Below are positions 7,677 to 32,274 of a stretch of DNA of 64,000 bases, piece after piece. The stretch lies in the NCBI GenBank assembly GCA_049325595.1, contig JBMOLF010000001.1, positions 1-64,000 on the forward strand, read 5' to 3'. The notes beneath the pieces were generated by a model that searched no databases, was not told the DNA's origin, and saw only the letters and a list, made by a program, of their open reading frames with translations. Position numbers and translations under genes: made by a program. Position 1 is the first letter of the stretch; every line of letters starts with the position of its first letter. This DNA comes from Candidatus Babelota bacterium. GTDB lineage: Bacteria; Babelota; Babeliae; Babelales; Vermiphilaceae.

Positions 7677-7705
7677 GTGAGCACCTGTTATAAACAAGTG
7701 CTCAC
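7677..7705 (-). terminator. Intrinsic terminator closing collagen cassette T1
   Basis: GTGAGCAC...GTGCTCAC stem just after the 7713 stop, followed by a T-rich run on the minus strand. Confidence 0.75.
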
Positions 7706-7712
7706 GGTAGCC

Positions 7713-8939
7713 TTACGCAAGTCTACGTATGGTAAATGAAGCATTAGTAGCAAATACGTTGGGACTTGGATTAATTTGATTTAAAAAATTACTAGGGCTA
7801 TTGAAAAAAACATGTATTTCTAGTTCTATAACATCAGATGCTGCAACCTGAAGAATTACTTGCCCATTAACTTGTCTGCGCAATGTTGGCGACTCATTGG
7901 ATAATCCTGCTCCATATTGCCCGCCCTCAACGGCAGCACCATTTCGCAACAGTGCAACTTGCACACAAGGGTTTAAAGGCACCGAAGCACCAAAATTGGT
8001 AATACCTGTTACTGAGTAATTTATTTCGTACACACCAGCTTCTGAAAATGATATTGGGGATGTAAAAATGATATGCCCTATATTAAGCAATGGGCCGTTT
8101 GTTGAATAAACAATCTCTTGTCCCCATTGTGCTGTGGTGGGTGTATTTTTATAAACATAACCAAAGGCACGGGTAATAAATGTCGATCCCGTAGCACCAG
8201 TAGCACCGGGAAGACCACGTGCTCCTTGAGCACCCGTAAAACCAGTTAATCCCGTTGTCCCATCTGGCCCCGTTGCTCCAGCTATACCAAGCGCGCCAAG
8301 TGCTCCTTGAGGACCTTCAAGCCCCGTAACACCCGTAACACCTTGTGGACCAGTATTACCAGTAAAACCTGTTGCTCCTTGAGCATCACTTTGCAATCCC
8401 GGATTACCGGTGAGTCCGGTTGCTCCTGTTAATCCAGTAACGATTCCTCGTGGATCACAGTTAGTAATCGATCCACAAATAGTTCCGCACACCAAAAGGT
8501 TATTCGCTATGACATTACCTTTGACAATTAAACAATCTAATGTTTTATTTTTTAGACATGCGCGCTGTTCCAGTGTTGCAACAACCGTATGGGATCGAAC
8601 AGAAAGATCATGTTTGTACTGCTCTAATATTAACATTGCATTAGCATCAAGACATATATCAGATGCCATTGCTAACGCAGCATCACAAGCTTTAGCTGCT
8701 AATTCCAAGGGAACCAGATTGTAATCATACGAAAAAGCTACGCGTAATCCATCAAGAGCTGACTCGCGCTGCGGATCATTTTTTTGAATAACCAGTTGCT
8801 CAATAATCTCTTTTACGCGCTCAGGTACAAATACATATTCTTGATCACTTTGCACATGATTATCAGAAAATTTACCGTATGAATGGGGTGTATTCCATAA
8901 GCTTAATAGCAAAACAAATATAAGACATTTTTTTAACAT
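7713..8939 (-). CDS. Collagen-like protein, C-type chain of cassette T1 (~27 triplets, BclA/C1q-like head)
   Basis: Signal peptide, acidic helical N-domain, Cys neck, 5 triplets + SDAQ break + 22 triplets, head with GVYEINY, ends SFTIRRLA. Confidence 0.9.
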
Positions 8940-8955
8940 GATTATCCTTAAAATC

Positions 8956-10170
8956 TTATGTCAATCTTCTAATCATTAAAGAATAAGCTGTTCCAATTTG
9001 ATCACCGCCCATAGAATTAAGCACTGATAAATTAGTTGTTCCCAAATTTATCAGCTCAACCGTTGCCCCTGCTGGTATTGAGATAATAGCCTCGCCGTAA
9101 TCTTGGGCATTGGCAGACGCCTGAGCAAATATCGATGTTTGATCTACTACGCCGTTTACCCGTATACCAAATACACTTGGCGCCATTCCTTGAACTATGT
9201 AGCTAATTTTGTATAATCCCGCATTGGCAACCGTAATTGAAGTGCCACCGCCATTCAGCGTTACACCTGGAGTAACAGCAGGCAACGCACCCTGAAAAGC
9301 TGCTGGACTATTAGCAAGAATGGTACCCGAAACACCTGAGGCCGCTCCGGTTGTGTAAAAATAACCATATGAAGCTGCTGCTCCTAATAAAGGACCGCTG
9401 TTTCCTGAAAAGCCGGTAAGAGTATTGTTCGCTCCGGTATTGCCCGTTGCACCAAGTGCTCCGATTGAACCAGTAGGGCCAGTAAATCCGGTAAAGCCGT
9501 TAGGTCCTGTATTACCCGTCGAACCTGTATTTCCTTGAGCGCCGGTATTACCCGTAAAACCAGTAAAACCCGTAAGCCCTGTAAAACCAGTATCACCAGT
9601 CGGACCATTAAGTCCTGTTGGCCCTTGATTACCGGTCGCACCATTGGGGCCTATCAGGCCACCACTGGTTGCAGCTGAAGATGAGGGAACAGTTATTGAT
9701 CCATTAACAAATAGATTGCCACAGATATTTAATATGTTGGTAATTAATTGAGAAAATACTTTTGGCTTTTTGCGAATAGCATCATATTGGATATGAACTG
9801 CTGCTTCTTCATTTTTTATGAGCACAGAAAAATTCTTTAAGGACAACACATGCTCATCAATCTCATCGAGGTCTAAATATGCGTGAATTTCTTCAAATGC
9901 TTTTTTTGCAAGATCAAGCGGATATAGTGTGTTGCCAGCATTAAGCCACTGCAATAACTGCCTGCTATGAGTTCCAAAAGCGCACTTTTGTTGCAAAACA
10001 GACAGAGAATTACGTATGTAAGACGGAATATGCACATAAGCATCATCTTTGTGTGCCATAATTAGTTGTTGATCATCATTACTCAGATCAACAAGCTCTA
10101 TCATATGGGTATTGGCATATATACTGCTTACACTTACCATTACAATTAATAGAAATCTTTTTAGTATCAT
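8956..10170 (-). CDS. Collagen-like protein, B-type chain of cassette T1 (~29 triplets)
   Basis: Signal peptide, neck [11 protein letters not shown], 26 triplets + NTLT + 3 triplets, head with GLYKISY and QDYGEA, ends SLMIRRLT. Confidence 0.9.
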
Positions 10171-10179
10171 ATACGCACC

Positions 10180-11343
10180 TTATGCAAATTGTCGTATTAA
10201 AATAGCAGCACTTATATTGGTCACTGCAGGATTTGGCCCTGCTTGAGGATTAAGAGTTATAATAGTTGGTGTTGCAATCTCTGGCGTCGTCTCATTGCGT
10301 AAAGTAATAACATCACCCGCGTTAAGTTGAATAATAACTGACCCATTATTTTGCTTTGAAACGCTACCCGAGAAATAGCGCGAACCGGCAATAAAGGTAC
10401 TGTTTTGATACAAGGCAAGCTGATTAATCTGGGCACTATTGACATTGTAGGTAATTTCGTACGTACCTGTTCTTTGAATCACAATATCAGTGGAACCCGG
10501 ATTGTGTAAAATGCCGACTAGCACTGCATTGGTATCAAACGGAATTGCTGTAGATCCAGTAAACCCTGAGCCACCACTAATACTCGTAGCACCGCTACTG
10601 TAAATATAAGCAAGTGCTTGGTCTGCTTCGCCAATACCAGTAGCACCTTGTGGGCCCGTAAATCCGGTTAAACCTGTAATACCATTAGCGCCGGTATTGC
10701 CGGTATTACCTTTATTACCTTGAGCTCCCGTAAATCCAGTAAATCCCGGATCTCCCGTTATACCCTGTGGACCAGTATTTCCAGTTGCACCTTGCAATCC
10801 GCGCGCGCCGGCAGCTCCTTGATTACCGGTAAAGCCCGTAATGCCCGGATCTCCGGTAGCACCTGTAGGTCCCGTTGCACCTCTAGGTCCGACACCTGGA
10901 TCACACACAATGTTGGGGGCATTACAACAAACAGTTAAGTTCCCACAAATAAGTACATCTTTTTTAACACATACCTTGTTAAAGCGTTTGCATTGTTTTT
11001 TTACCTCTGTTGCGCTTAAAACAATATCAGCATTATTATGTGCAATTTGTTCTTGATAGTGTGCAACCGCTACTAGGTCTGCTTCACTACAGCTATTCAT
11101 ATCATGTACCGCAGCAGAAAATAATTGGCTAGGTACAACATTTTTTTCTTCTTCAATACTTTGGCTTAATGCTTTTAATGCTATTGATTGATCATTTGCA
11201 TCAGCCTGCTTTTTGATGATATGCTTAATTTCATCAGTTAAAATAACATACTGAGTCTCGGGTTTATCGGAATAAAACGTTAAATCAGCTCTAGCGCAAT
11301 AACTTATTGCGATAAGCATGATTACAAATAATTGGTAGATCAT
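10180..11343 (-). CDS. Collagen-like protein, A-type chain of cassette T1 (~28-29 triplets)
   Basis: Signal peptide, neck [17 protein letters not shown], uninterrupted collagen, head with GTYEITY and LNAGDVITLRN, ends ILIRQFA. Confidence 0.9.
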   Translation of the reverse strand: MIYQLFVIMLIAISYCARADLTFYSDKPETQYVILTDEIKHIIKKQADANDQSIALKALSQSIEEEKNVVPSQLFSAAVHDMNSCSEADLVAVAHYQEQIAHNNADIVLSATEVKKQCKRFNKVCVKKDVLICGNLTVCCNAPNIVCDPGVGPRGATGPTGATGDPGITGFTGNQGAAGARGLQGATGNTGPQGITGDPGFTGFTGAQGNKGNTGNTGANGITGLTGFTGPQGATGIGEADQALAYIYSSGATSISGGSGFTGSTAIPFDTNAVLVGILHNPGSTDIVIQRTGTYEITYNVNSAQINQLALYQNSTFIAGSRYFSGSVSKQNNGSVIIQLNAGDVITLRNETTPEIATPTIITLNPQAGPNPAVTNISAAILIRQFA

Positions 11344-11486
11344 TACTTCTCCCTTTTAATTATTAAATATTAATCCAGTCACACACAAAAATCAGTTCGG
11401 TATGGTTGCTATAGAAGCAACTGCCATTGAGCTCAAACATTAACCATAAAAAATGTTACGGATTTCATGTAATTATTCTTTACTAC

Positions 11487-12404
11487 TTATGCAATTTGTC
11501 TTATCAAGATTGATGCATTAATACTGTCTGCATCAAACCCGGCAGGTGGCGTTACTAAGTCAATATTATTAGCACCCGTACGAGCCGCTAAATTAATAAT
11601 ATCACCTGCATTAAGTTGAAGAATACCTTGTCCTCTAATTTGTAAGGGGGTACTAGGGCTATCAAAAAAACCTACACCACCACTTGTTCTAATTGCAATC
11701 ACTTCATAGGTAATTTCATATAATCCCGTATTATTCACCGTAATATCTATATCATTTACGGAATGAGTAATATTTTGTAATATGCCATTACTATTAAAAC
11801 TCACAAAACTTACGGCTGTTTGTGCAGCCGTATTATAAATATACGCATAACTCAATGCAACACCCGGTTCACCAGTAGCACCAGGAGCACCGGCAGCGCC
11901 AAGAGGACCCGTATTACCAGTAAATCCTGTTAGCCCCGTGATGCCAGTTTGCCCGGTAGCGCCAGTGTCTCCGGTAGCTCCTGGAGCGCAAGCTGACCCT
12001 TGGCAATTCAATCCATTAATAAATGCGCTATTGCAAACTAACAAATCACCACCAATGACCATATTATTTTTTACACAGAGTCGATTAAATATTTTATTTT
12101 TTTTGTGCGCACGCGCTACATCACAAACTATTTCCGGATCATGATTAAGCAGTGCATGGTAATAGGTAGCAACAACACTCATTTCATCGTGAGTAAGTAT
12201 TGTATGTTTATCTAACTCAGCAACACGTTGCACACAAGAATGTGAACAGCATGATGAATAATTTTCTATAATATGACAAATTGGCTCAACAGATGCATAA
12301 TAATCTATTGTTTGATTATGATCATGGGCAAAAAAATTAATACACCATATACTTAGAACAGCACATACGCTATTCATAAGTATTAGTTTTCTATTCTGCT
12401 GCAT
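11487..12404 (-). CDS. Orphan A-type collagen-like protein, shortened (~14 triplets)
   Basis: Neck [20 protein letters not shown]-type ending ASILIRQIA; N-domain, stalk and head all shorter than in paralogs. Confidence 0.85.
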   Translation of the reverse strand: MQQNRKLILMNSVCAVLSIWCINFFAHDHNQTIDYYASVEPICHIIENYSSCCSHSCVQRVAELDKHTILTHDEMSVVATYYHALLNHDPEIVCDVARAHKKNKIFNRLCVKNNMVIGGDLLVCNSAFINGLNCQGSACAPGATGDTGATGQTGITGLTGFTGNTGPLGAAGAPGATGEPGVALSYAYIYNTAAQTAVSFVSFNSNGILQNITHSVNDIDITVNNTGLYEITYEVIAIRTSGGVGFFDSPSTPLQIRGQGILQLNAGDIINLAARTGANNIDLVTPPAGFDADSINASILIRQIA

Positions 12405-12529
12405 ATACTTCTCCTTTTTACATGATAATACAGAGGAATGTTACCTATACTTCATACAAAAAAAGTAAGGTATTACGCAAAGGTTTAGAATCGCAGCAAA
12501 ACGAAAAAATCGTCGACTAGATAAGTGAA

Positions 12530-12557
12530 AAAAGCCGAAAATTTCTTTTCGGCTTTT
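12530..12557 (-). terminator. Intrinsic terminator closing collagen cassette T2
   Basis: AAAAGCCGAAAA...TTTTCGGCTTTT perfect stem 12 nt after the 12570 stop. Confidence 0.8.
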
Positions 12558-12569
12558 ATAATTTAAAAA

Positions 12570-13772
<1,203 letters not shown>

Positions 13773-14963
13773 TTAACTTGCAATACGTCTTATGAGCAAT
13801 GCAGCAGATGTTCCTATATTAGCGCCTCCCATGCTACCACTTAATCGAGCTTGCGCTTGAGCCGTAAAAATATTTACCAATGACACCGTGGTATTTGGAA
13901 CTGTTACCGTTAAAATTCCTTGTCCATACGCTTGCGAAAAATTATTGGGATTTCCGAAATTAAAGCTGGTATCCTGGACTCCATTTACAAATAAACTCCA
14001 GCGCGATGCACCTAATATATTGGTTGAAATAAAAGTAATTTCATAGGTGCCAGTATTTGCAATAGTAACTACCCCACCTGCTACCGACAATCCCACGGGA
14101 ACTGTAGGAATTGAATCGGCAAAAGGAACTGGACTACCTAATGGCACTACAACTCCTGTTCCACCGGTTATTAAAAACATAGCATAAGCTAATGGACTTA
14201 ATGGCGCCCCGTCTGGACCCGTTGCTCCCGTATTGCCCGTGGCGCCAGCAGAACCCACAACAGAAGGGCCTCTTGCTCCCGTTGGCCCAGTAAAACCGGT
14301 AAAACCAGTTGACCCCGTATTGCCGGTATTACCTGACGCACCTAATGCACCAAAAGCTCCTTGAGGTCCAGTAAAACCAGTAAACCCGGTGTCTCCGGTG
14401 TTACCGGTATTTCCAAGAGGACCTGTTGCTCCTTGCGCCCCGCGAGAGCCAGTTGGCCCAGTAACACCAGTTATTGGATCGAGTGAAGCCGTAACGTTAG
14501 CACAAATAAGACCTCCTACACAAAGATTGCCACAAATTTTAAGATTATTCGCACAGAGTTGGCAATACACTTTACATTTTTTCTTAGGAGTATAGTCGTT
14601 GTTTTTTTCAGAGATTACTGTAGTGTAAAATTGCTGAATGCAATCTTTGTATGGGCAATCTTGGGCACTCAAGAATTCACTAAATTTTAATACCGATTCA
14701 ATACCTAATCTAACCAATTCTACATTAACATAGTTATTTTTTTCTAATGCAGCACATAATTGCTGAAAATCATTGTCTACTAATAGCGCACATGTTCCAC
14801 GATTTAGAGCTTGTAAGCCCTCTTTAACACATTCAGGAAGACATATTTTAATAACTTGTTCTTCTGTTTGTGTTAATTCATTTTCTAAAACATCTGCTTG
14901 TAGTGGAAGGTATGGCAAGCATGCCAATATACCTATCATATATAAGTTTATACTCTTTTTCAT
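13773..14963 (-). CDS. Collagen-like protein, B-type chain of cassette T2 (~29 triplets)
   Basis: Neck [26 protein letters not shown], 23 + VV + 6 triplets, AYAMF, YGQG, ends ALLIRRIAS. Confidence 0.9.
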
Positions 14964-14974
14964 ACCAGTCCTTT

Positions 14975-16186
<1,212 letters not shown>

Positions 16187-16411
16187 TACTAACTCCTTAT
16201 TAAAAATAGAACGAATTATTTATTTTTTACAAAAAATATTAGTGTTAAATCAATACAACTGAAAAATAGACTCTCTCACAATTTCATTATTCTTGCTGAA
16301 CAAGCAAATAAAATAAAAGGACGACATTCAACACCGAGTACATTGATTATTCTCAGATGACCATTCAAGATCTAAAAAAATTACTTGTTTTCTCACAACA
16401 AAAAAACAAAC

Positions 16412-16435
16412 TCCCCCGAGTAAAACTCAGGGGGA
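16412..16435 (-). terminator. Intrinsic terminator closing collagen cassette T3
   Basis: TCCCCCGAGT...ACTCAGGGGGA GC-rich stem followed by a T-run on the minus strand. Confidence 0.75.
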
Positions 16436-16457
16436 AAATTTGAATATCAAAAATAGG

Positions 16458-17777
<1,320 letters not shown>

Positions 17778-17787
17778 GTATTTCTCC

Positions 17788-19152
<1,365 letters not shown>

Positions 19153-19163
19153 GAGCTACCCTT

Positions 19164-20534
19164 TTACCCAATTTGACGTACAATTATTGATGCGGCTACA
19201 TTTTGATTATCAGTACTTGTCGCAAATCCTGTTGAGCTTACTACAATTGAAACTCCAGAAGCATTCACACATCGAATCGTAAGTACATCTCCTGCATTTG
19301 CAGAAAAAACTACCCTACCAGTAACCGATGCCGGTGTCTTAAACCCAGTAATAAAATAAAGAGTTGCTCCTGGTATTAAACTTCCATTAAGAGCAGCCGT
19401 AAATCGAGATGTAGTAGCTGTTCTAATAGTATACAAAACCTCATAGGTACCGGTAGTTGAAATCTCAATATTAGTACTTCCCGGTGCGTGAGTAATACCA
19501 CTTATTGGTCCATTAGTAGTAAATGGAACTGAAGCACTATCAGCTAAAGTAGTTGGATCACCTCCTGTCACGCTCGTTGTTCCACTAAAATAAGCGTATA
19601 AAAATGCTGCATCGCCAGCTGCAAGACCTGCTGCACCAGAATTTCCAGTAAAACCGGTAAAACCCGTAAAGCCAGTCGGACCTGTATTGCCGGTGGCACC
19701 CAATGCACCGAGCGCCCCCCGAGCGCCTATAGGACCCGTAAAGCCGGTGAATCCGCTCGGGCCGGTGTTGCCTGTAGCGCCCAATGCACCGACATTTCCT
19801 TGCGGGCCGGTAAAGCCGGTAGAGCCTGTGTCACCGGTAAAACCCGTGTTACCCGTATTACCCATCGCTCCTGCTGCACCCTGCGGACCGGTAAAACCGG
19901 TAAAGCCCGTTGGGCCCGTAGGTCCAGTAAAGCCAGTCTCGCCAAGCGCGCCTAAAGCGCCCAATGCACCTTGTGGACCGGTAAAACCGGTAAAACCTGT
20001 ATCACCTGCGGCTCCTGTTGCACCTGTTTGGCCTGAACCTCCTATAGCACTGCATGGCTGGGTAATGTTTGGATCCGGGCAAATAGTGCCGCATACAATT
20101 AAGTTGCCCCCAATACGTGCATTCCCACAAACAAAAAGTTCATTAAATGTTTTGCACCGTTTACGCACGGTATCTTCGTCGCAGACAACGCAATCATCTA
20201 AATTAATTAGTTGTTCATAATAGGCATTAACAATATTTAAATCTTGTTGATCTAAAGACAATGCACGCAATTCTTGCGCTGCACATATCATTAACTCAAG
20301 TGGCATATATTCTAGAGTGTGATCAGCGCAGGCTGCTGCCAATGCCACTAATCCTGGGGTATCTTGCATTAATGATGGATCAATTTTGGTACCAATTGAT
20401 CTAATAGGAAAAGTTTTAGCATAATGTTGATTGGGATTGTTACTGGTAAAGGTAATCTGATTTTCTGCTCTTATTATCAAAGAAAATAGTAGCAATAGAA
20501 AAACAGAATTTCGTCTCCATGAGACTATATTCAT
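19164..20534 (-). CDS. Collagen-like protein, A-type chain of cassette T3 (~47 triplets)
   Basis: Neck [29 protein letters not shown], 47 uninterrupted triplets, ends IIVRQIG. Confidence 0.9.
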   Translation of the reverse strand: MNIVSWRRNSVFLLLLFSLIIRAENQITFTSNNPNQHYAKTFPIRSIGTKIDPSLMQDTPGLVALAAACADHTLEYMPLELMICAAQELRALSLDQQDLNIVNAYYEQLINLDDCVVCDEDTVRKRCKTFNELFVCGNARIGGNLIVCGTICPDPNITQPCSAIGGSGQTGATGAAGDTGFTGFTGPQGALGALGALGETGFTGPTGPTGFTGFTGPQGAAGAMGNTGNTGFTGDTGSTGFTGPQGNVGALGATGNTGPSGFTGFTGPIGARGALGALGATGNTGPTGFTGFTGFTGNSGAAGLAAGDAAFLYAYFSGTTSVTGGDPTTLADSASVPFTTNGPISGITHAPGSTNIEISTTGTYEVLYTIRTATTSRFTAALNGSLIPGATLYFITGFKTPASVTGRVVFSANAGDVLTIRCVNASGVSIVVSSTGFATSTDNQNVAASIIVRQIG

Positions 20535-20591
20535 TACCGACTCCTTTTTTTAGGTTGATTATTTTTTGCTTCAGAACGTTTGATCTTTGAA

Positions 20592-20620
20592 AGACTAGAA
20601 ATTTTTTTTTGAAAAATCAA
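20592..20620 (-). promoter_or_regulatory. Putative sigma70 promoter for cassette T3
   Basis: TTGATT-17 nt-TAGTCT on the minus strand, ~57 nt upstream of the 20534 start. Confidence 0.5.
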
Positions 20621-20635
20621 AAATAGTTAAAATAG

Positions 20636-20668
20636 AAAAACACCACCAAAAATATTGATGGTGTTTTT
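20636..20668 (-). terminator. Intrinsic terminator closing collagen cassette T4
   Basis: AAAAACACCA...TGGTGTTTTT stem flanked by A/T runs. Confidence 0.65.
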
Positions 20669-20796
20669 AGAAAATTTAAAATAAAGTTAAATCCCACTTT
20701 GAATCACAAAATTGCACTACCTTTTTGCGTAGGTAATAGCTTTCGGTCTGCTTTCTCCGTTTTTATAATTTCTTTAAAAACAATGCTATCGTAATA

Positions 20797-21960
20797 TCAT
20801 AATAACTTTCTCACATAAAGACTGGCAGTAACTGAACCGGGAAATTCAGCAGCATGTTGCAACGTTAAGGTATTAGTTATTGTGCCGGTGTTATTTAATA
20901 ATCGTACTGAGTCACCAGCATTTACAACGGCTATAAATTGACCATTCATGGGACGAGATCTGGTAGTTGCAAGTGTAGAACTTCCCGCTCCGTAGGTAGC
21001 AGCATTAAAAAGAGAATTAGATGAATCAATTGCTCGTATTTGAATTTCATTACTTGATGATGAACCAGTTTTAAACCCATTTACTTGGTAGGTAATTTCA
21101 TAAATACCATCAGACAAAAAAATAATGCTATCAGAGGTAACGGCCATATTTACTACTAATCCTACCGTTGCTAATGGTATGGTGCTTGCAAAAGGAACAA
21201 CACTCTGGTCGGTACTATAAATATAAGCATATGCTTCACTACCACCTGCTGGTCCGGTATTACCCGTTGGGCCTTGTTGACCAACAGCGCCTTGCATACC
21301 GGTAAAACCGGTAAATCCTGTAAAGCCGGTTGGCCCTGTATTACCTATGGCGCCAAGTGCACCTCGCGAACCTTGTGCACCGGTATTGCCGCTATTACCA
21401 GTTTGTCCTGTCTGTCCTATTGCTCCAGAAAAACCAGTAGGACCTTGTGCTTGTTCTTGCAAACCAGCATTGCCGGTAAGACCAGTCTGACCAGTAAAAC
21501 CAGTTAGCCCTGTTAAGGTGCTTATGCAATTTCCCGCAAATGTTCCCTGTATACTACCTTGCACTATTAAATTATTCACACGCACTGATTCAGTAACACA
21601 CAAATTATTAATCACTTTAGGTCTTGATCGCACTTGGTTTGCAATCATTTTTTTTATACTTATTATTTGTGACTCAATCTGCTCATGTAAATGCATATGA
21701 TTTAAATGATTCATTTCAAGATATGTTTGCATTTCAATTAATGCATTTAATACTAGCACGCTTGAAAGTTCTTGATACCCATCCAATTGCGCATACTTTA
21801 CTACTTGTATGGCTGGCGACACATTAGTTTGGGGAATTAAGTGGGTCACTTGTTGAATTAACTCACTCATCTCACCAGACAAACTTACCAGACATTCATG
21901 AGCGTTAAGCACAGTATTAATAGCACAAAATAGAACGAAAATAGTTTTATTAATTTTCAT
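20797..21960 (-). CDS. Collagen-like protein, C-type chain of cassette T4 (~29 triplets)
   Basis: Neck [21 protein letters not shown], 6 + EQAQ + 23 triplets, ends SLYVRKLL. Confidence 0.9.
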
Positions 21961-21972
21961 ATTTTCTCCATT

Positions 21973-23112
21973 TCAAGCAATACGTTTAATTAATAGCGAT
22001 GCAGAAGTCGTAATATCTTGCCCTCCTAAATTGCCAAGCAAATCTGCATCAGTGTTGGGGTTGGCATTAATTAATGAAATCGTGGTATTTGCAGGAACGG
22101 TTATTATGGCATGACCATAGCCTTGACCAAAATTACCAGCTAGGCCAGGCAAGCTGGGGTCATACAACACACCATTAATTGCCAATCCAAAAATATCTTC
22201 TGAGGTAACTATATGTACCACTTCATAGGTTCCCGTATTAAGAATGGTAATATTACTGCCAGAAAACGACATTCCAATGGGAATATCAGGAATAGAACCA
22301 GCAAATATTACTGATGTGTTATTTCCCGTTAAAGAAACGTTGCCCGTAACGTAGAACATACCAAAAGCAGGCTCAAGATTTATTCCTGCAGGACCGGTAG
22401 CGCCAGTTACCGTGTTAGTAGGACCTGTAGAACCAATATTACCCACCGCTCCGATAGCACCTTGGGCACCGGTAAATCCGGTAAAACCAGTAGGTCCTGT
22501 TGCACCAGTAGCTCCTGTTTGGCCAGAATTTCCTTGCGCACCTTGATTACCCGTATACCCAGTAAAACCGGTTTGTCCGGTAGGACCAGTATTACCCAGT
22601 GGGCCAGTTGCACCCTGAGCACCTTGTGTACCCTGTTCACCGCGGACACCTTGTTGCGGGTCGATTCGAAGATGAGAAGCACAAATAATTCCTTTAACAC
22701 ACACATTGCCACATATTTTGAGCGTATTTGCACACAATGTGTCATATGTTTTATTTTTTATTTTTTTCTTGCTACTCGATTCATCTAACTTTAAATTGTG
22801 CAAATAGTGCTTCATGCGTAATTTTAATGGCCAATCTTGTTCAGAAATAAATTCATCATATGTAAAAATTGATTCAAGCGCATTAATGAGCAACTGTTTG
22901 TTTATCCATTTTTTTTGCGCAAGCATATTGCATAGTTCTTCAAAAGTTTGATCAACCAACATAATGCGTGAGTTTCTCTTGAGATCAACCACTCCTGTCC
23001 GAACCCAATCAGGCACAAAAACTTTTTGTGTTTCATCATGCGTTATCGCACACATTTTTGAAGCAGTACCTACGGTTATAAACAATAAAATAAATAAAAT
23101 AAAATATTTCAT
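21973..23112 (-). CDS. Collagen-like protein, B-type chain of cassette T4 (~29 triplets)
   Basis: Start reassigned to MKYFILF (AGGAG RBS, removes overlap); neck [20 protein letters not shown], 26 + NTVT + 3 triplets, ends SLLIKRIA. Confidence 0.9.
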
Positions 23113-23120
23113 TCTCGCTC

Positions 23121-24335
23121 CTAATCTAATTGCCGAATAATAAGTGTGGCTGCCGGATTCACCCAAATGGGTGGAGTATTTCTGCGCGTTTGAGAAATTA
23201 CATAGGTTTCGTTATTGGAATTTACGTTGCGAATGGTAACAACATCACCAGCTTGTGCGTTGAAAATTACCTGTCCATTAACAAAAGGAAAATTAAATGT
23301 ATCAAGACCAGAGTTGTATAACCCACCACCAAGTAATGTGTCGTTTACATAAACCCCAAATTGAATTGGCGCAACATTAAGAAATGCTGAAACGCGATAC
23401 AATACCTCATAACGACCAGGGTTAACAATAGTAACCTGCGAACTTCCTATGGTATAATTAACTGATTGTATTGCTTCAGATGTGCCAAATGGAATAGGCG
23501 CTCCAAGTAACACTCCCGTAGGCCCTGAAACCGAAATAACACCTGTCGCGATTAAAAAAGCATACGCTCTTAATGATGCGGGTATTCCTTGTGCACCACT
23601 ATTTCCCGTAAAACCAGTAAAACCTGTCTGACCGGTTGGTCCAGTAAAACCTGTTGCTCCTGCAGCTCCAACAGCACCTTGTGGTCCAGTAAATCCCGTA
23701 AAGCCGGTGTTCCCATCTGCTCCCGTAAACCCAGAGTCTCCGGTAGTACCTTGCAAACCAAGACCACCGGTATTTCCAGTAAAACCGCTAAAACCCGTTT
23801 GCCCCGTTACACCGGTTGTACCGGTATTTCCCGTGGCACCTTGGGGACCAAAACAAGAAATTTCCGGATCTGGGCACATGGTATTACACACCACCAAATT
23901 ACCACCAATACATGCATTACCTTTGACACATAATGTGTTAAATTTTTTACCATTACCACGTAGAAAATTTTCTGCAAAAACAACATCTTCATTATGTGTA
24001 AGAAGCTGCTGGTAATATTCTTTTATGAGTTGGTAGCTACTCGTATCTGGTGGCAAGAGCATTAACAGTTCGTGTAATGCGCAAATCATTATTTCAAGCG
24101 GCACATACTCAACTTCATTGTTTTCTGTACTATGTGCGATTGCTTTGAGCCCACTATTATTGGCTCGTAGATCGGCAGATAAGGTATCAATTATTTGTTT
24201 AACCGGTTGGATAATAGCAGCATATAATTGATGATCATGATTGTTTTCAAAAACAATTTTTTCATCAGGTTGTGTATAAACATGATAGGGAACAATGAGC
24301 ATTAGCATAAGCATAATGCCAAAACCTTGCTTCAT
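23121..24335 (-). CDS. Collagen-like protein, A-type chain of cassette T4 (~30 triplets)
   Basis: Neck [28 protein letters not shown], 30 uninterrupted triplets, ends LIIRQLD. Confidence 0.9.
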
Positions 24336-24380: not shown

Positions 24381-24457
24381 AGCTTAAAAAAAGAGATGCT
24401 GAAAAACCAAGTATAACCGTGCTAAATAGTTGCAATTTTTCTGTTGATGCATATAAT
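24381..24457. promoter_or_regulatory. Back-to-back putative sigma70 promoters between the collagen array and the glycosyltransferase cluster
   Basis: Plus strand TTGCAA-16-TATAAT (24430-24457); minus strand TTGGTT-18-TAAGCT (24410-24381). Confidence 0.5.
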
Positions 24458-24491
24458 CCACAAAAAAACTATTCAAAAAAGGGAACACTCA

Positions 24492-26264
24492 ATGAAGCAT
24501 CTATTTAAACATCTTATCTATTTGTGTACTTTTATTTTTTATCCATTTTTACTCTATGCAACTCACAAATCATTTGTAGTAATTATTCCCTCATATAACA
24601 ACATTCAATGGTGTGAGCAAAACTTACGTTCGGTGTTTGGACAAGAATACGACAATTATCGCGTAATATATGTCAACGATTGTTCTGATGATGGCACTAA
24701 AGAACGAGTTGAACAGTTGGTTGACCAACTTGGTCAAAAACATAGATTCATGATGATCAATAACACCACACGCCGAGGCGCCATGGCAAATTGGTTCATG
24801 GCCGTATGGTTGTGCGAACCACACGAAGTGGTGGTAAGTTTAGATGGTGATGATTGGTTTGCGCATGAGCGTGTGCTTACCTATTTAGATTCTGTATATC
24901 AAGATCCTGAGGTATGGATGACCTATGGACAATTTATTATCCACAACAACAATCAAATTGGCTGGTGTAGACAAGTTTCTTCAGAAACCATTGAGAAAAA
25001 TCAATTTCGTGACGATGCCTGGGTTACTTCTCATTTAAGAACTTTTTATGCAGGTCTTTTTCATGGCATCCCCAAAGAAGATTTCATGGTAAATGGCCAA
25101 TTTTATCAATCAGCTGCTGATCTTGCTATTATGTATCCGTTATTAGAAAGAGCCGGCAAACATAGTCGCTTTATTCCTGAAATTTTGTATGTGTATAATC
25201 GCATTAATCCAATAAATGATGAACGCGTAAATTATAATTTACAAACTAATCTTGGCATTTATATTCGCGCACAAAAAAGACACCAACCAATCGAGCGATT
25301 TGATGACGCTACCGAACAACGCACCATTTATATTCAAAAAGGATTGTGGGGTTGTTTGTTTGATATTAATTCTCATCACAATCGCGATAACTGTTTATAC
25401 CCTACTTATTTACTTCGCATTGAAATGGCAAAAAAAGGATACCGTTTAGTAGAAACAGATACTATTGTTGGTCATCATAACGCACATGCTATTGTTTGCT
25501 TTGATGTACCAATGGCAGAACTGGAGCGTTTACCAGAATATCCAACAGAAAAATTATATTTGTTTTTGTGGGAACCACCATCAGTTTCACCTCATAATTA
25601 CAATCAAGCTTTCCATTATCCATTTGCTAAAGTTGCTACCTGGATGGATGAATTGGTAGATGGTAAAAAATACCATAAAATGTATTACCCGGTTCGCAAT
25701 GAAGTTATTAAAGATGTTGTTCCTTTTGAACAAAAAAAATTGGCAACCATGATTGCCTTTAATAAAAATTCAGGCCATCCTCGACAACTCTATGGCCAAC
25801 GTGCAGAGCTCGTAAATTTTTTTGAGCACTATCATCAAGAAGATTTTGATATTTACGGCAACTGGTGGCCACAGCATTACAAAACTTATAAAGGAACGGT
25901 AAAGAGCAAAGTAGATACGCTAAAACATTATAAATTTGTATTTGCCTACGAAAACATCGAGGGCATATCAGGTTATGTTACTGAAAAAATGTTTGATGTG
26001 TTTTGGGCTGGAGCTGTTCCCGTGTATTGGGGCGCAGACAATATTGAACAATATGTTCCTAAAAATTGTTTTATTGATCGGAGAGATTTTGCCGATAACG
26101 AACAATTGTATCAGCATCTTAAAAACATGAGCAAAGAAACCTATGAGCAATACCTTGTTAATATCAAAAATTATCTTGCATCATCTCAATCTACAATGTT
26201 TAGTCCACTCAATTTAAGCAACGTATTTAGCCAAATGGTTTTAAATGAACCATTATCAGCATAG
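24492..26264 (+). CDS. Bifunctional GT2 + GT10 (fucosyltransferase-like) fusion with signal peptide
   Basis: VIIPSYN, NDCSDD, LDGDDW (GT2); LWEPP, YKFVFAYEN, GYVTEK, PVYWGA (GT10); start moved to MKHLFK, downstream of the promoter. Confidence 0.88.
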   Translation: MKHLFKHLIYLCTFIFYPFLLYATHKSFVVIIPSYNNIQWCEQNLRSVFGQEYDNYRVIYVNDCSDDGTKERVEQLVDQLGQKHRFMMINNTTRRGAMANWFMAVWLCEPHEVVVSLDGDDWFAHERVLTYLDSVYQDPEVWMTYGQFIIHNNNQIGWCRQVSSETIEKNQFRDDAWVTSHLRTFYAGLFHGIPKEDFMVNGQFYQSAADLAIMYPLLERAGKHSRFIPEILYVYNRINPINDERVNYNLQTNLGIYIRAQKRHQPIERFDDATEQRTIYIQKGLWGCLFDINSHHNRDNCLYPTYLLRIEMAKKGYRLVETDTIVGHHNAHAIVCFDVPMAELERLPEYPTEKLYLFLWEPPSVSPHNYNQAFHYPFAKVATWMDELVDGKKYHKMYYPVRNEVIKDVVPFEQKKLATMIAFNKNSGHPRQLYGQRAELVNFFEHYHQEDFDIYGNWWPQHYKTYKGTVKSKVDTLKHYKFVFAYENIEGISGYVTEKMFDVFWAGAVPVYWGADNIEQYVPKNCFIDRRDFADNEQLYQHLKNMSKETYEQYLVNIKNYLASSQSTMFSPLNLSNVFSQMVLNEPLSA

Positions 26265-26271
26265 GAGTAAT

Positions 26272-27180
26272 ATGAAGAATTATGTCGCGTTGTTTTTGTT
26301 TGTGATAAGTTTTGTGCATGCACAAGAACCGTTACATTTTTGTACTGCCTCTGATAGTCGATATTTTAATTGTCTTATTAATTTAATTGGCTGTTTACAT
26401 AAACATAATTTTGATCAAATTGGCACCATTGCAGTATTTGATCTTGGTATGACGGCTGAGCAAAAAGAACACGTATCACGCATTGCCAAAGTAAGCATAC
26501 ATGACGTTGAAAAAGTACATCCCGATATTATCACCCCCATGCAAACTACGCATTGGGGAAAAATGGTACCTGGATGGTATGCATGGAAAGCAGTAATCAT
26601 TAAACAAGCGCTTGATATGGTAGATTGTGTGTTATACATCGATGCAGGAACGACTATTTACAAACCTCTTGATGATTTATTTAAGCACATTCGCCATGCT
26701 GGTTACTTTTTTCATAATGGCTCACCCTGGTGCATTCAACAAGAAACTACACAATATGTCATCAACAAATTTGATCTTGCAAGCTCTGAAAAAAAATGGT
26801 TATTAGATGAAGACATTAAAGGCCTCGAGGCTGGGTTTATGGGGCTAACAAGACGGGTATATGATTCTTTTGTAATGCCCGCATATCAATTGGCGCATGA
26901 TTTACGAAATTTTGCCGATGATGGTAGCTGCCGGGGTGGATTTGGCAATTGCCGCCATGATATTCCCATATTTTCTATGATCGCTCTTCTTAATGGATTA
27001 ACAATTTATCATCATTTTAAACAACCATGCCAAACCTTATGGCTCGATACTGATGAAGGAAAAATACCATTTCATATCGCGTGCAATCCACAAGATCGTA
27101 CATCACAAACGCATGTTTATTGCTCACGCATGGATGTATCGGGAATACAAGAAAATATACAAGCTATTCGCTTAAAATAA
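26272..27180 (+). CDS. Putative GT-A fold glycosyltransferase (DUF1647-like) with signal peptide
   Basis: AGGAG RBS before MKNYVALFLFVISFVHA; TASDSRYF, FDLG, YAWKAVII, LYIDAG, CRHD. Confidence 0.65.
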   Translation: MKNYVALFLFVISFVHAQEPLHFCTASDSRYFNCLINLIGCLHKHNFDQIGTIAVFDLGMTAEQKEHVSRIAKVSIHDVEKVHPDIITPMQTTHWGKMVPGWYAWKAVIIKQALDMVDCVLYIDAGTTIYKPLDDLFKHIRHAGYFFHNGSPWCIQQETTQYVINKFDLASSEKKWLLDEDIKGLEAGFMGLTRRVYDSFVMPAYQLAHDLRNFADDGSCRGGFGNCRHDIPIFSMIALLNGLTIYHHFKQPCQTLWLDTDEGKIPFHIACNPQDRTSQTHVYCSRMDVSGIQENIQAIRLK

Positions 27181-27197
27181 CCAATAAAGGAAATACT

Positions 27198-27854
27198 ATG
27201 AAACGCACTTTTTTATACACATTCTTAATTTCAGGATCGTTACACGCTTACGAGCCTAAAGCTCATGAACAGTGGTGGCATGCAAATTGTACTGAAAAAA
27301 TACCCTTATACAGACAGTGGTATGGCGATGCAGATATAAAAGAGCGTACTTTTATATGCAAATACCTTAAAGACAAGCAATATCAATCAATTCTTGATGT
27401 CGGCTGTAGTTTATGTTCTTTATTCTTTGCGATAAAAAAAGAAAAAGTTGCTATTGATTACACGGGACTTGAAGTAACAAAAGCTTTTGTTGATCGTGCT
27501 GCTAAGTTTGGTATTCCCGTAATATATGGCTCAGTAGAAGAATTGCCATGCCAAGATAATAGCTATGATTGTATTTACATGCGCCATGTACTTGAACACT
27601 TAGAATATTATGAAAAAGCTATTACTCACATGATTCGAGTAGCCAAAAAAGAGGTAATTATATCGTTCTTTAAACACCCTAACAACTGGATGCCTGACAC
27701 TATTGAATTGGTAAAAGTTGATTCCATGCCTTTGTACCATAATCAATATAATAAACTTAAGATTGATACGTTTGTAAAACAAAATCCTAAAGTTGCTTCA
27801 TTAAAATGGGATTATATTGGTAACGATTATGCATTATGCATAACTCTTAAGTAA
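27198..27854 (+). CDS. Class I SAM-dependent methyltransferase with signal peptide
   Basis: MKRTFLYTFLISGSLHA; ILDVGCS, ELPCQDNSYD, RHVLEH. Confidence 0.85.
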   Translation: MKRTFLYTFLISGSLHAYEPKAHEQWWHANCTEKIPLYRQWYGDADIKERTFICKYLKDKQYQSILDVGCSLCSLFFAIKKEKVAIDYTGLEVTKAFVDRAAKFGIPVIYGSVEELPCQDNSYDCIYMRHVLEHLEYYEKAITHMIRVAKKEVIISFFKHPNNWMPDTIELVKVDSMPLYHNQYNKLKIDTFVKQNPKVASLKWDYIGNDYALCITLK

Positions 27855-27861
27855 AAAACAT

Positions 27862-27887
27862 AAAAGCCGCTAATACTAGCGGCTTTT
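27862..27887. terminator. Bidirectional terminator between convergent genes
   Basis: AAAAGCCGCTA...TAGCGGCTTTT perfect stem. Confidence 0.85.
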
Positions 27888-27899
27888 TCTTTGGTAATT

Positions 27900-28634
27900 T
27901 TAGTTTTTAAAATAGCGATCAAACTCATCACACCAGCAACGTAACATTTCTTGTTCGGTTGCATCTACTAAACTTTCACGTAATAATTCTTTTGCTTGTG
28001 CAGCAAGCACTTGCCCGGCCATATCTTTTTTCTTTTTAGCACGCACAATAATATTTGGGCACAATTGCCATTGGGTGTATTCAAACGAAATATCTTCAAA
28101 ACCCACCGCTGAAAGTACATGTTTAAACTTTTGCGCATACCACCCATCCCAATGCACTGCCCAATGTGCTTCATGGGAGCCAAAAATATGGCGTAAAGTA
28201 CTTTGTTTTTGAACATACGAATAAGAATCATTCATAAGAATATGCATACTTCGCTCAAAATCTGGTGTTTCAATAATTAAATCACCGTCATTTTCAAGCC
28301 AGGTATGCCAATTACACAACAAAGCTAGAGCAACTGAACGACTAAAATGCTCAAACATATGATGTGATCTGATTTCTTTTATACTATTTGCCGGCAAATT
28401 AAGATGAGAAATGTCAGCATGTATATCGGCGGCAATCTGTTTTTGAACTGTCTGTTCTGATTGAGGATAATCAATATTTATATACCCATCAAACTTTATT
28501 TGACCACAGCCTAAGTGTAATTTTATAGGATGCGAGTAGGCGGTAATATCAAATGAATAGTGAGCAGAAGATTGATTAACAATACCAGTAGTAACGCACA
28601 GCAAAGTTATTAATAGAGGTATTAATGGTAACAT
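27900..28634 (-). CDS. SAM-dependent methyltransferase (type 11-like) with signal peptide
   Basis: KLHLGCG, GYINID, SHHMFEHF, LIIETPD. Confidence 0.85.
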   Translation of the reverse strand: MLPLIPLLITLLCVTTGIVNQSSAHYSFDITAYSHPIKLHLGCGQIKFDGYINIDYPQSEQTVQKQIAADIHADISHLNLPANSIKEIRSHHMFEHFSRSVALALLCNWHTWLENDGDLIIETPDFERSMHILMNDSYSYVQKQSTLRHIFGSHEAHWAVHWDGWYAQKFKHVLSAVGFEDISFEYTQWQLCPNIIVRAKKKKDMAGQVLAAQAKELLRESLVDATEQEMLRCWCDEFDRYFKN

Positions 28635-28646
28635 CTCATTTCCTTG

Positions 28647-29462
28647 TTAATTAAATAGGTTAGTAAGTCGTTGATAAGAAGGTTTTGCCAAAATTTTATG
28701 CATTAAACTCAATTGCAATTGGTGATCGATGCGATGATCGCTAATAGGATTTGCATTATTGTATATATACAAGATTTCATTAATAAAGCGATAACGATCA
28801 CCAGCCATTTCAATCATTGGTGCCATCATCGCTTTATCCCACGTCATCATTAAAAAGTTGCCATCATCATCACACAAATCTTTTTGAGCGATGCGTTTAA
28901 ATAAGCCCGCGTAAAATGTTCTTAAATGCGACATTGGTAAATTTTGAAATCGTCTAAAAGCATTATTTTTTACTACCCAAGACGGAAAATCTTCACAAAA
29001 TCCACGGTGCCCTGTTGGATATTCTTGATATTGGCCAAAAGTAAGCCACACATTATTATCTTGATAAACTTCATTTAAAAATGATAACACATAAGGATGT
29101 GACAACCAATCATCACCATCGAGTGTTAAAATAATTTCTTCATCACGACAACTGTGAATGGCATGATATAAGTTATATGTTGCACCATGACGTTGCTCAT
29201 TATTAATCAACGTCACCCTATGATTCATCTTATGGCTTGCAATACAATCTAAGACCAAGTGATAAGTTTTATCCGTGGAACAATCATTAATATAAATAAC
29301 ACGATAGTTAGTATAATTTTGTGCAAAAACAGAGGCTAAATTATTTTGGCACCATTGTGCATTGTTATAAGAAGGAATTACAATCACAAATGGTTTTTCT
29401 GATTTGTTGTTAGCCTGACATAAAAAAATAAATGATAATAAGATCATCCATAAATGCTTCAT
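28647..29462 (-). CDS. GT2 family glycosyltransferase with signal peptide
   Basis: VIPSYNN, INDCSTD, LDGDDW, SHLRTFYAGLF; paralog of the 24492 N-domain and of 32275. Confidence 0.9.
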   Translation of the reverse strand: MKHLWMILLSFIFLCQANNKSEKPFVIVIPSYNNAQWCQNNLASVFAQNYTNYRVIYINDCSTDKTYHLVLDCIASHKMNHRVTLINNEQRHGATYNLYHAIHSCRDEEIILTLDGDDWLSHPYVLSFLNEVYQDNNVWLTFGQYQEYPTGHRGFCEDFPSWVVKNNAFRRFQNLPMSHLRTFYAGLFKRIAQKDLCDDDGNFLMMTWDKAMMAPMIEMAGDRYRFINEILYIYNNANPISDHRIDHQLQLSLMHKILAKPSYQRLTNLFN

Positions 29463-29617
29463 ATTATTTCCTTTTTTTAATATTAAAATTTGTAATGGTT
29501 CTACTATGTATAGCGGCTAAAGTCAATTAATAGACCGATCATTTTCTTATTGTCTTTAATTCATTTTATTGGTAGAACACAAAAAACCATTTTTCGATTT
29601 TTTACAAGGAGTTTTTT

Positions 29618-30370
29618 ATGAGGCATCGTATTTTATTTAGTTTTATAATTCTTACTCTTTTAAACGTGTTCAACTTACAAGCCACCAAAAAATCAATTGG
29701 CTTATTAATTGTCGCTACGGGTAAATATATTCAATTTGTTCCACCATTAATTGAATCAGCACGCAAATATTTTTGTGTTGATCATACCATACATTACTAT
29801 GTATTTACCGATGGTACTATGAACACTGGCCAAGATACCACATTAATTTTCCAATCACGCTTAGGCTGGCCATATGATACCCTAAAACGTTTTTCTATGT
29901 ACGCTCAACACGCTAACCGCTATTGCCACCATGATTATTTATTTGCACTTGATGCTGATATGCAATTTGTTGATTATGTTGGTTCAGAAATATTATCTGA
30001 TCGGGTAGCAACATTACATCCTTGTTTGTTAAATCAACGCGGCACGTATGAAACACGTAATTGTTCAACAGCTTATGTTGCACCATACGAAGGTACCTAT
30101 TATTTTGCTGGTGGTTTTAATGGTGGGAGTACTACAGAATTTATTCGTATGGCCCAAACTATTACTGCTAACATAGAAAAAGATTTGGAGCATAATTTTA
30201 TAGCACTCTGGCACGATGAAAGCCATGTTAATCGGTACTATATTGATAACGAACCCACCTGTATTTTATCACCCGATTATTGTTATCCAGAAGGATGGGA
30301 TTTACCTTATCACCCGCGCCTGCTTGCCTTATTAAAAGATCATAAAACATTTCAACAAGGAGCTATATGA
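29618..30370 (+). CDS. GT6 family (ABO/alpha-1,3-Gal(NAc) transferase-like) glycosyltransferase with signal peptide
   Basis: IGLLIVATGKY, YYVFTD, LDAD (DxD), YYFAGGFNGG, WHDESHVNRY, LSPDYCY. Confidence 0.92.
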   Translation: MRHRILFSFIILTLLNVFNLQATKKSIGLLIVATGKYIQFVPPLIESARKYFCVDHTIHYYVFTDGTMNTGQDTTLIFQSRLGWPYDTLKRFSMYAQHANRYCHHDYLFALDADMQFVDYVGSEILSDRVATLHPCLLNQRGTYETRNCSTAYVAPYEGTYYFAGGFNGGSTTEFIRMAQTITANIEKDLEHNFIALWHDESHVNRYYIDNEPTCILSPDYCYPEGWDLPYHPRLLALLKDHKTFQQGAI

Positions 30371-31317
30371 AAAAGTTATTGTTAACTCTGGGTATTATAA
30401 GCGCACCATTAATCGCACAAAAAACTATTTATGTATATGCCCCCGGATGGGATATTGCCCAATACTTTGCGGCTGTTGGTGTAACCAAAGAATTTAATGC
30501 ATATGATATTACATTTAAACAAGTTTCTTCTGCACATGCTATTGCCCCGCATGAGCAAGCATTATTTTTTGATATCGATCCTGCAGCTCAATCTGCCTAT
30601 GCTGCGCTCTCTCCAGAAAATTGCATTTTATTTTTATGGGAACCGCCAACGGTAAAACCCCATAACTATGACAAGCGCTATCATAATTTTTTTAATAGGA
30701 TCTACACCTGGAATGATACGCTTGTTGATAAGATAAAATATTTTAAAGTACATTACCCGGTTCGTCATGATATGCGTCCTGCAAGTCGTACCTTTGCTCA
30801 AAAAAAACTGTGTGTCATGGTCGCTGCTAATAAACGGTCAAATCATGAGTTTGAATTATATACTCAACGCGCCGCAACAATACACTATTTTAATCAAAAT
30901 CATCCTGATGAATTTGATTTATATGGTTTTGATTGGCCGCATTCATTGCGCGTATATAAAGGAGTAATTAATGATAAACTTGAATGCGCAAGCGCGTATA
31001 AGTTTAGTATTGCTTATGAAAATTTAACAAACGTGCCGGGATATATTACCGAAAAAATATTTGATTGTTTTATATCAGGTTGTGTACCTATTTATTGGGG
31101 AGCGCCTAATATAACTGATTACATACCACAATCATGTTTTATTGATCGCAATAATTTTTCATCACAGGAAGAGTTGTATGAGTATATTTCAACTATGAGC
31201 GAAGAAACTCATCAAAAATATATTAAAGCAATTCAAGAATTTTTAATGAGTGACGCCGCTCATAAATTTAGCCCTCAATTTTTTGTTGAGCTACTTAAAT
31301 CAATCTATCTTACTTAA
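30367..31317 (+). CDS. GT10 family fucosyltransferase-like protein with signal peptide
   Basis: LWEPP, YKFSIAYEN, GYITEKIFD, VPIYWGA; ATGA overlap with the GT6 gene. Confidence 0.88.
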   Translation: MKKLLLTLGIISAPLIAQKTIYVYAPGWDIAQYFAAVGVTKEFNAYDITFKQVSSAHAIAPHEQALFFDIDPAAQSAYAALSPENCILFLWEPPTVKPHNYDKRYHNFFNRIYTWNDTLVDKIKYFKVHYPVRHDMRPASRTFAQKKLCVMVAANKRSNHEFELYTQRAATIHYFNQNHPDEFDLYGFDWPHSLRVYKGVINDKLECASAYKFSIAYENLTNVPGYITEKIFDCFISGCVPIYWGAPNITDYIPQSCFIDRNNFSSQEELYEYISTMSEETHQKYIKAIQEFLMSDAAHKFSPQFFVELLKSIYLT

Positions 31318-32179: not shown

Positions 32180-32274
32180 ATTCATTCCTTTTTTTATTGA
32201 TGTAATGATTGGTTTATAAAATATTAAATTTTCATATACTAAGCAAATCAACCTCTTAAAAAAAGGACCGTTTA

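Follow-up and report, generated by a model that had tools for sequence, protein, structure and literature searches.

The first 64,000 nucleotides of contig JBMOLF010000001.1 from a Candidatus Babelota bacterium (assembly GCA_049325595.1; genome of 1.29 Mb in 24 contigs), hereafter the window, carry an array of collagen-like genes on the minus strand. Between positions 7713 and 24335, the open reading frame (ORF) listing gives 13 minus-strand ORFs with Gly-X-Y runs, encoding proteins of 305-456 residues, and all 13 proteins matched the Pfam family Collagen PF01391 (E-values from 5e-8 to 3e-21; 33-75 bits, with a cut-off of 27.2). Twelve of the genes form four groups of three (T1-T4) in the order A-B-C, with gaps of 16 and 9 nt inside T1, 12 and 11 nt inside T2, 10 and 11 nt inside T3, and 12 and 8 nt inside T4; the gaps separating units measure 143, 165, 271 and 262 nt. 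These coordinates reproduce the layout described in an initial annotation of the same DNA. Its count of 13 collagen genes holds for 7713-24335, while the window as a whole contains 21 collagen-like ORFs, the others being one at 146-1039 and seven at 41473-56760. The features of the array and of the adjoining island are as follows.

23121..24335, minus strand: A4, first gene of T4, 404 residues; signal peptide, helical N domain, Cys-rich neck, 90-residue collagen region and BclA_C-like head
21973..23112, minus strand: B4, second gene of T4, 379 residues from ATG 23112; 91-residue collagen region with a 4-residue break close to the head
20797..21960, minus strand: C4, third gene of T4, 387 residues; 91-residue collagen region with a 4-residue xxAQ break toward its N end
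20636..20668, minus strand: terminator-like hairpin 3' of C4 (terminator scan, folding)
19164..20534, minus strand: A3, first gene of T3, 456 residues; 141-residue collagen region
17788..19152, minus strand: B3, second gene of T3, 454 residues; 145-residue collagen region
16458..17777, minus strand: C3, third gene of T3, 439 residues; 142-residue collagen region
16413..16433, minus strand: terminator-like hairpin with U tract 3' of C3 (terminator scan, folding)
14975..16186, minus strand: A2, first gene of T2, 403 residues; 89-residue collagen region
13773..14963, minus strand: B2, second gene of T2, 396 residues; 89-residue collagen region
12570..13760, minus strand: C2, third gene of T2, 396 residues; 90-residue collagen region
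about 12530..12557, minus strand: intrinsic-terminator hairpin 3' of C2, 12-bp stem and U tract (folding)
11487..12404, minus strand: S, solo gene, 305 residues; 42-residue collagen region, apparent chimera
10180..11343, minus strand: A1, first gene of T1, 387 residues; 87-residue collagen region
8956..10170, minus strand: B1, second gene of T1, 404 residues; 91-residue collagen region
7713..8939, minus strand: C1, third gene of T1, 408 residues; 85-residue collagen region
7677..7705, minus strand: terminator-like hairpin of 13 pairs 3' of C1 (terminator scan, folding)
24444..41406, no strand assigned: glycosylation island beside the array (glycosyltransferase and methyltransferase content)

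A ribosome-binding site lies ahead of every cassette gene, with a Shine-Dalgarno-like GGAG or AGGA in every gap within a cassette. The start of B4 was placed at ATG 23112 because GGAG lies just 5' of it; the alternative TTG 23166 would overlap A4. Terminator-like hairpins follow all four third genes, as the initial annotation had proposed, and follow no other cassette position. Three were found by a consensus scan, and that of C2, missed by the scan, was recovered by folding (z -3.6), which found no hairpin between S and A1 (z 0.19). This predicted operon layout is consistent with A, B and C being co-expressed in equimolar amounts.

Domain architecture and position classes

Each protein comprises five parts: a hydrophobic signal-like segment, an N region of about 140-170 residues, a neck, the Gly-X-Y region and a head of about 122-155 residues. 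Hydrophobic residues alternate in the neck, and most chains carry Cys there; this Cys lies 2-12 residues ahead of the helix in all 12 cassette chains except B1, where the distance is 21 residues. Cys parity was considered as a sign of interchain disulfides and set aside, the counts being inconsistent among cassettes and yielding no consistent pairing scheme. Neither the N domain nor the Cys-rich neck matched a Pfam family at E ≤ 0.1, and a search of the ESM Atlas with the A2 N domain returned no usable match by features and template-modelling (TM) scores of at most 0.36 by structure. A monomer model of A2 had a helical N domain at about residues 40-120 and a moderately confident head, with neck and stalk unmodelled; at a mean predicted local distance difference test (pLDDT) score of 48.9, it was too poor for a fold search.

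The stalks comprise 27-47 triplets per chain in the 12 cassette genes and 14 in S. Over the 13 collagen regions, the Y residue is Thr in 249 of 413 triplets, the X position is mostly Ala, Phe, Pro or Asn, and charged residues make up 1-6% of each stalk. Phe at X is unusually frequent (68 of 413 triplets, mostly as Gly-Phe-Thr). Interruptions are class-specific: B chains are broken close to the head and C chains toward the N end of the stalk. The motif GxxGA(L/I)GA(L/V)G was tried as a register marker and dropped, as its positions differ among chains.

Searched against the PDB, a profile of the 13 heads matched the C-terminal domain (CTD) of F-BclA from B. thuringiensis (9h38, E-value 1.2e-15; PMC12357932), single-chain C1q (5hkj, 2.2e-5), BclA (2z5w, 2.3e-4), the collagen X NC1 domain (1.3e-3) and adiponectin. 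The Pfam family BclA_C (PF18573) reached its 38-bit cut-off in three of the 13 (A1, 48.1 bits; B1, 38.5; A3, 38.0), scored a sub-threshold 18-31 bits in six, and was not found in C2, C3, C4 or B4. The Pfam C1q family appeared in A1 only, below its cut-off (16.2 against 23.7 bits). With BclA_C passing in only three heads, the fold assignment rests mainly on the profile search, by which the heads are predicted to be jelly rolls of the BclA_C/C1q type. The label "C1q-like" in the initial annotation is sound as to fold and gene arrangement, with the proviso that for the head the likeness is one of fold only, Pfam C1q lying below its cut-off. Head homology spans all classes. The only named relatives of the B2 head were two proteins of 'Candidatus Dependentiae bacterium Noda2021' (NCBI naming); the B2 and B3 heads gave no match in two metagenome scans, and a further head-profile search, which is not an inventory, gave few candidates.

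The position of a gene in its cassette predicts its sequence class, as had been claimed from short motifs. These motifs are present in the A, B and C class alignments, and the rule holds for both N domains and heads: among the window genes, identity in these domains is 27-51% inside a position class and 12-33% across classes (34-36% for pairs involving S). In trees of the window genes, all four B genes formed one clade (100/99, heads) and C2-C4 grouped together (97-100), while A2-A4 grouped on N domains and on full length (87/90 and 90/96) and only A2 and A3 did so on heads (88/85); A1, C1 and S took no resolved place. We extended the trees to ten cassettes by adding the six intact cassettes of a congeneric genome (G001). 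Position 2 then formed one clade with all ten members for heads (100/98) and for N domains (97/83), and position 3 did so with eight of ten (96/87) and nine of ten (97/96), respectively. Position 1 was never one resolved clade, yet never fell inside the B or C clades. The expectation that phylogeny would return A, B and C clades rather than cassette clades was borne out for B, for most of the C genes and not for A. Because class clades appear in place of cassette clades, the main array must have grown through duplication of entire A-B-C cassettes.

Length matching and groups of three

Within each cassette, the three collagen regions have nearly the same length, and this length varies from cassette to cassette. 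In residues for A/B/C, the spans are 87/91/85 in T1, 89/89/90 in T2, 141/145/142 in T3 and 90/91/91 in T4, and the corresponding counts of clean triplets are 29/29/27, 29/29/28, 47/47/46 and 30/29/29. Outside the window array, this genome holds further cassettes of 39/33/35 and 54/54/54 residues, and a triplet split over contig ends of about 60/57/57. The triplets of G001 measure 60/57/57, 74/81/75, 108/99/100, 88/89/89, 144/145/137, 81/63/88 and 91/89/87, where the 63 is an under-measurement for a region whose Gly-X-Y runs give 85, and two G001 pairs with a broken first gene measure 109/115 and 142/143. A genome of another genus (G009) has far longer triplets of 522/521/509 and 294/299/292. 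Altogether, 11 further tight triplets beyond the window are matched, from 33/35/39 to 509/521/522 residues, and at least seven distinct length classes occur, each matched over three unlike genes. When B and C genes were shuffled among cassettes, arrangements as tight as the observed one came up 6 times in 576 for the window alone, 6 times in 518,400 for six of this genome's cassettes and not once in 200,000 for G001, figures that overstate the effect because related and orthologous cassettes are not independent.

The matched members are otherwise diverged. In 13 of 15 triplets, the N domains of cassette mates share 22-41% identity, and in the other two they share 30-50% and 40-61%; identity among the heads of mates is 26-46%. 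Between collagen parts, the longest exact DNA match had a mean length of 14.5 nt for cassette mates and 15.4 nt for unrelated pairs, and only one long stretch (57 nt) was shared, by the same-class genes C2 and C3. We therefore ruled out gene conversion as the source of the matched lengths, since shared exact DNA does not exceed background, and found no recent conversion. Recent triplication was ruled out for the main array by the class clades and the low identity of mates. The roughly 18 extra triplets of the T3 type sit at differing alignment places in A, B and C, so three separate length changes arrived at the same total.

Tight groups, defined by gaps of at most 35 nt, occur as threes and never as fours. 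Among 48 such groups, retrieved in fetches aimed at matches of B2 and hence not an unbiased census, there were 15 triplets, four pairs, 29 single genes and nothing larger; a later fetch added one triplet and three single genes. Two of the four pairs are triplets with a broken first gene. The proposed survey of relatives for conserved triplets found tight ones in G001, in G009 and in a genome of another family (G029). In a tree of 48 heads from 16 triplets, several triplet lineages cluster by lineage and not by position, namely the short-type triplets, the triplet at C1:65897-68626, the two G009 triplets and the G029 triplet. This clustering indicates that triplets arose several times independently.

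Cassettes also appear to be lost. The array of G001 (G001:C1:681554-713398) holds six intact cassettes, with a seventh triplet about 10 kb upstream at 669184-671934, and the same genome has two cassettes with a truncated or missing first gene and one solo C1-like gene, a mixture that points to ongoing birth and decay. The solo gene S fits this picture. Both ends of S align with one and the same intact cassette of G001: the N domain and neck with its position-1 gene, the neck being nearly identical, and the end of the collagen region and the head with its position-3 gene. The collagen region of S has shrunk to 42 residues, and its head is short of about 24. S is probably what is left of a fifth cassette after recombination between collagen repeats collapsed it.

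The number three recurs among relatives of the heads that carry several heads in one chain, none of them encoded in the window. Of 152 matched proteins listed, 105 have one head, 42 have three, four have two and one has eight, in a list of the top 150 by score that favours multi-head proteins. Heads of the same three-head chain mostly share 22-52% identity. One such protein was modelled with a pLDDT of 86.7 and a predicted TM score (pTM) of 0.87, and the top PDB matches of the model were the engineered single-chain C1q structures 5hkj and 5hzf, adiponectin 4dou and the APRIL-BAFF-BAFF fusion 4zch (E-values from 4e-17 to 5e-12). Each of its domains superposes on the F-BclA CTD with a TM score of 0.91-0.94; global superposition was poor (TM 0.22-0.32, root-mean-square deviation of about 22 Å) and does not confirm the domain arrangement. 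As the multi-head chains of this family carry three heads, a trimer of unlike heads would seem to be a recurrent natural solution. The three-head proteins lack collagen, some being eukaryote-like, with a mucin-like stalk and a membrane anchor, and others rich in Lys and Asn.

Proposed chain assembly and its alternatives

To the extent that tight three-gene operons, three conserved classes, repeated threes and length matching bear on assembly, one shared triple helix is their most economical explanation. We propose, with a probability of roughly 55%, that each cassette is an operon whose A, B and C products assemble 1:1:1 into one heterotrimeric BclA/C1q-like fibre. The three products would be exported, and their three unlike C-terminal jelly-roll heads would pick each other and nucleate the trimer. 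The Thr-rich Gly-X-Thr stalk would then zip from the heads, over about 25 nm in T1, T2 and T4 and about 40 nm in T3, and the Cys-rich neck and small helical N domains would close the far end, the neck possibly locking it through disulfides and the N domains probably tethering the fibre to the cell envelope. Enzymes from the neighbouring glycosyltransferase island probably add O-linked glycans to the stalk. Several cassettes could in this way give this very small, amoeba-associated and protist-dependent bacterium a repertoire of tips and lengths for host contact. Anchoring, neck disulfides, glycosylation and host contact are all inferred.

We modelled the heads of T2 as a complex of A2 225-403, B2 225-396 and C2 215-396, using class alignments and C2 as the partner; ABC was the only combination modelled, and the three controls used unrelated proteins. 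The A2+B2+C2 model scored 0.86, compared with 0.52 for the best control, and passed a mark that is reached by 116 of 157 solved complexes and two of 215 mismatched pairs, a mark that is rough here (own alignments, three chains). Its runs shared at least 96% of contacts, with a partner pLDDT of at least 86. Resemblance to BclA and C1q trimers of known structure may account for the pass. The obligate ABC heterotrimer of the initial annotation has in this way gained length matching, repeated triplets, the lack of larger groups and a passing model, all of them indirect support.

Several observations weigh against shared ABC helices, and some of them favour homotrimers (AAA, BBB and CCC), which would make each cassette a set of three co-expressed fibres with stalks kept equal to present their heads level in one surface layer. 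All solved or modelled relatives are homotrimers, namely BclA, the F-BclA CTD and the Pcl7 model, and a general account of prokaryotic collagens treats them as homotrimers, naming defined heterotrimers as a stated obstacle for recombinant collagen (PMC8968730). In an AlphaFold 3 (AF3) study of C. difficile BclA1-3, no heterotrimers were found and the paralogues are not predicted to mix. The class-specific, unaligned interruptions would be housed more simply in homotrimers, where they would line up, and the helix itself would give little chain selection given stalks with only 1-6% charged residues. Solo genes occur, namely S and the C1-like gene in G001. As measured, the tight triplet of G029 is unmatched (82/143/137), as are loose groups in other genera (for example, 501/214/120 in G013 and 265/82/93 in G017). 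We regard homotrimers as the main alternative, though a rather unlikely one. One genome holds cassettes of about 35, 54, 57, 90 and 142 residues, each internally matched, so there is no single layer height to which stalks could be fitted, and homotrimers leave unexplained the tight groups of three and never four, the repeated origin of triplets and the decayed look of cassettes that lost a member.

A looser arrangement, in which chains assemble promiscuously within or across cassettes at variable stoichiometry (AAB, ABC, ACC) to give combinatorial tips, draws on the homology of all head classes and on the control with chain 1 replaced, where C2 still scored 0.52 against B2. Combinatorial mixing has been proposed for the Pasteuria collagen-like proteins (PCLs; PMC7743900), and the stalks of about 90 residues common to T1, T2 and T4 make cross-cassette mixing sterically possible. 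The conserved gene order, the three classes maintained over ten cassettes and the tight operon coupling point instead to fixed partners, and we consider promiscuous assembly improbable. Less probable still, to the point of being a slim chance, is that the array is a variant store for antigenic or phase variation, with few cassettes on at once and the triplet merely the unit of duplication. Cassettes were duplicated as units, their birth and death are visible in the S chimera and the broken first genes of G001, and Pasteuria triplets are described as diversity hot spots; against this, each cassette has its own upstream region, Shine-Dalgarno sites and terminator, and a store explains neither the length matching nor the number three. 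A variant store would also be compatible with the heterotrimer proposal. We regard the cassettes as plausible encoders of putative heterotrimers.

Neighbouring loci and known systems

The 17-kb island lies between two collagen arrays. It encodes a 606-residue fusion of glycosyltransferase families 2 and 10 (GT2-GT10), three more GT2 proteins, a GT6 and a GT10, together with two FkbM-type and other methyltransferases and several ORFs without a Pfam match. The Thr-rich composition of the stalks and the adjoining GT2/GT6/GT10/methyltransferase genes fit a predicted O-glycosylated stalk, and we infer that the island's enzymes decorate it.

The second array, at 41473-56760, holds seven collagen-like genes of a different build, three of which (41473, 43452 and 48585) have an N-terminal DUF5122 β-propeller ahead of the collagen region. 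Two of its genes, at 51364-52806 and 52809-54602, are 2 nt apart and have collagen regions of 246 and 248 residues; this pair could be a two-gene version of the length-matching rule. The ORF at 50573-51181 (202 residues) lacks a collagen repeat and matches a BclA_C/C1q head weakly. At the edge of the window, the ORF at 146-1039 is the first gene of the short-type triplet split over contig ends, with the second and third genes at G000:C23:36463-38401; the counterpart of this triplet in G001 is intact.

The closest parallel in gene arrangement is Pasteuria ramosa, known here from published descriptions. Thirteen collagen-like gene triplets, which have been linked to host attachment, are described from its genome (PMC13233619; bioRxiv 10.1101/2025.03.22.644704; bioRxiv 10.1101/2024.02.09.579640; PMC10329263). 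In these triplets, PCL genes of groups 1-2-3 follow one another in fixed order on the same strand and have spread by triplet duplication (PMC13233619; bioRxiv 10.1101/2025.03.22.644704; McElroy et al. 2011 as cited). The two systems share three same-strand collagen-like genes in fixed order, one per sequence group, many triplets per genome through whole-triplet duplication, Thr-rich stalks, a BclA-like C-terminal domain and an obligately parasitic way of life. They differ in phylum (Bacillota against Dependentiae here) and in origin, PCL triplets being traced to one ancestor whereas those here arose several times, and the N domains and Cys-rich neck here are without a Pfam match. One paper says that grouping in triplets "seems to be unique to P. 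ramosa" (PMC13233619), and another states that the function of the triplet form is unexplained (PMC10329263); the present locus shows that triplets are not unique to that species and is a second occurrence of the architecture, in a phylum distant from Pasteuria. Heterotrimers in Pasteuria are raised only as a possibility in a paper that models Pcl7, with its BclA-like C-terminal domain, as a homotrimer (PMC7743900). The initial annotation's impression that such an assembly was undescribed in bacteria has accordingly to be narrowed: fixed-order triplets and the suggestion of heterotrimers are on record, and the length-matching rule and repeated triplet origin are new arguments for putative heterotrimer formation. 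Literature searches found no paper on collagen-like genes of Dependentiae.

In protein build, the nearest systems are BclA, of the exosporium nap, and F-BclA, of the tip fibrillum of endospore appendages, which likewise combine an N-terminal anchor, a Gly-X-Thr stalk and a C-terminal TNF/C1q-like jelly-roll trimer, with glycosyltransferase genes nearby (for F-BclA, PMC12357932). Unlike the three diverged chains per operon here, they are homotrimers from single genes, and their exosporium leader is replaced here by a Sec-type signal peptide and Cys-rich neck. Endospore formation is not known in Dependentiae, nor is an endospore or exosporium known here. Complement C1q and the NC1 domains of collagens VIII and X resemble the cassette proteins at the level of fold in joining a collagen stalk to a C-terminal gC1q-type head; C1q further shares three clustered paralogous genes, Cys N-terminal to the helix and interruptions not common to all chains. 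The cassettes differ from C1q in being bacterial, with a Thr-rich stalk and no hydroxyproline system, and in that a heterotrimer is only proposed; the C1q bouquet, a hexamer of trimers, is a feature without counterpart evidence here. Engineered single-chain TNF/C1q trimers find natural analogues in the head relatives with three unlike heads in one chain, which are without collagen and absent from the window.

We hold the balance to be even on the wider claim that these are the first natural prokaryotic heterotrimeric collagens, with co-evolving heads that select chains and stalks of registered length, evolved repeatedly from single genes within Dependentiae, either separately from the Pasteuria triplets or well ahead of them. 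Were that so, the Pasteuria triplets would be explained as well, and the cassettes would amount to a natural collection of ABC chain-selection modules that are orthogonal to one another. ABC trimers would likewise provide natural compact chain-selection domains and a simple bacterial model of register control, and would give the P. ramosa collagen-gene triplets a mechanistic meaning. As for the organism itself, with some 30 collagen-like genes and 17 kb given over to the glycosylation island, its 1.29-Mb genome appears to invest heavily in surface fibres, plausibly to make contact with a host.

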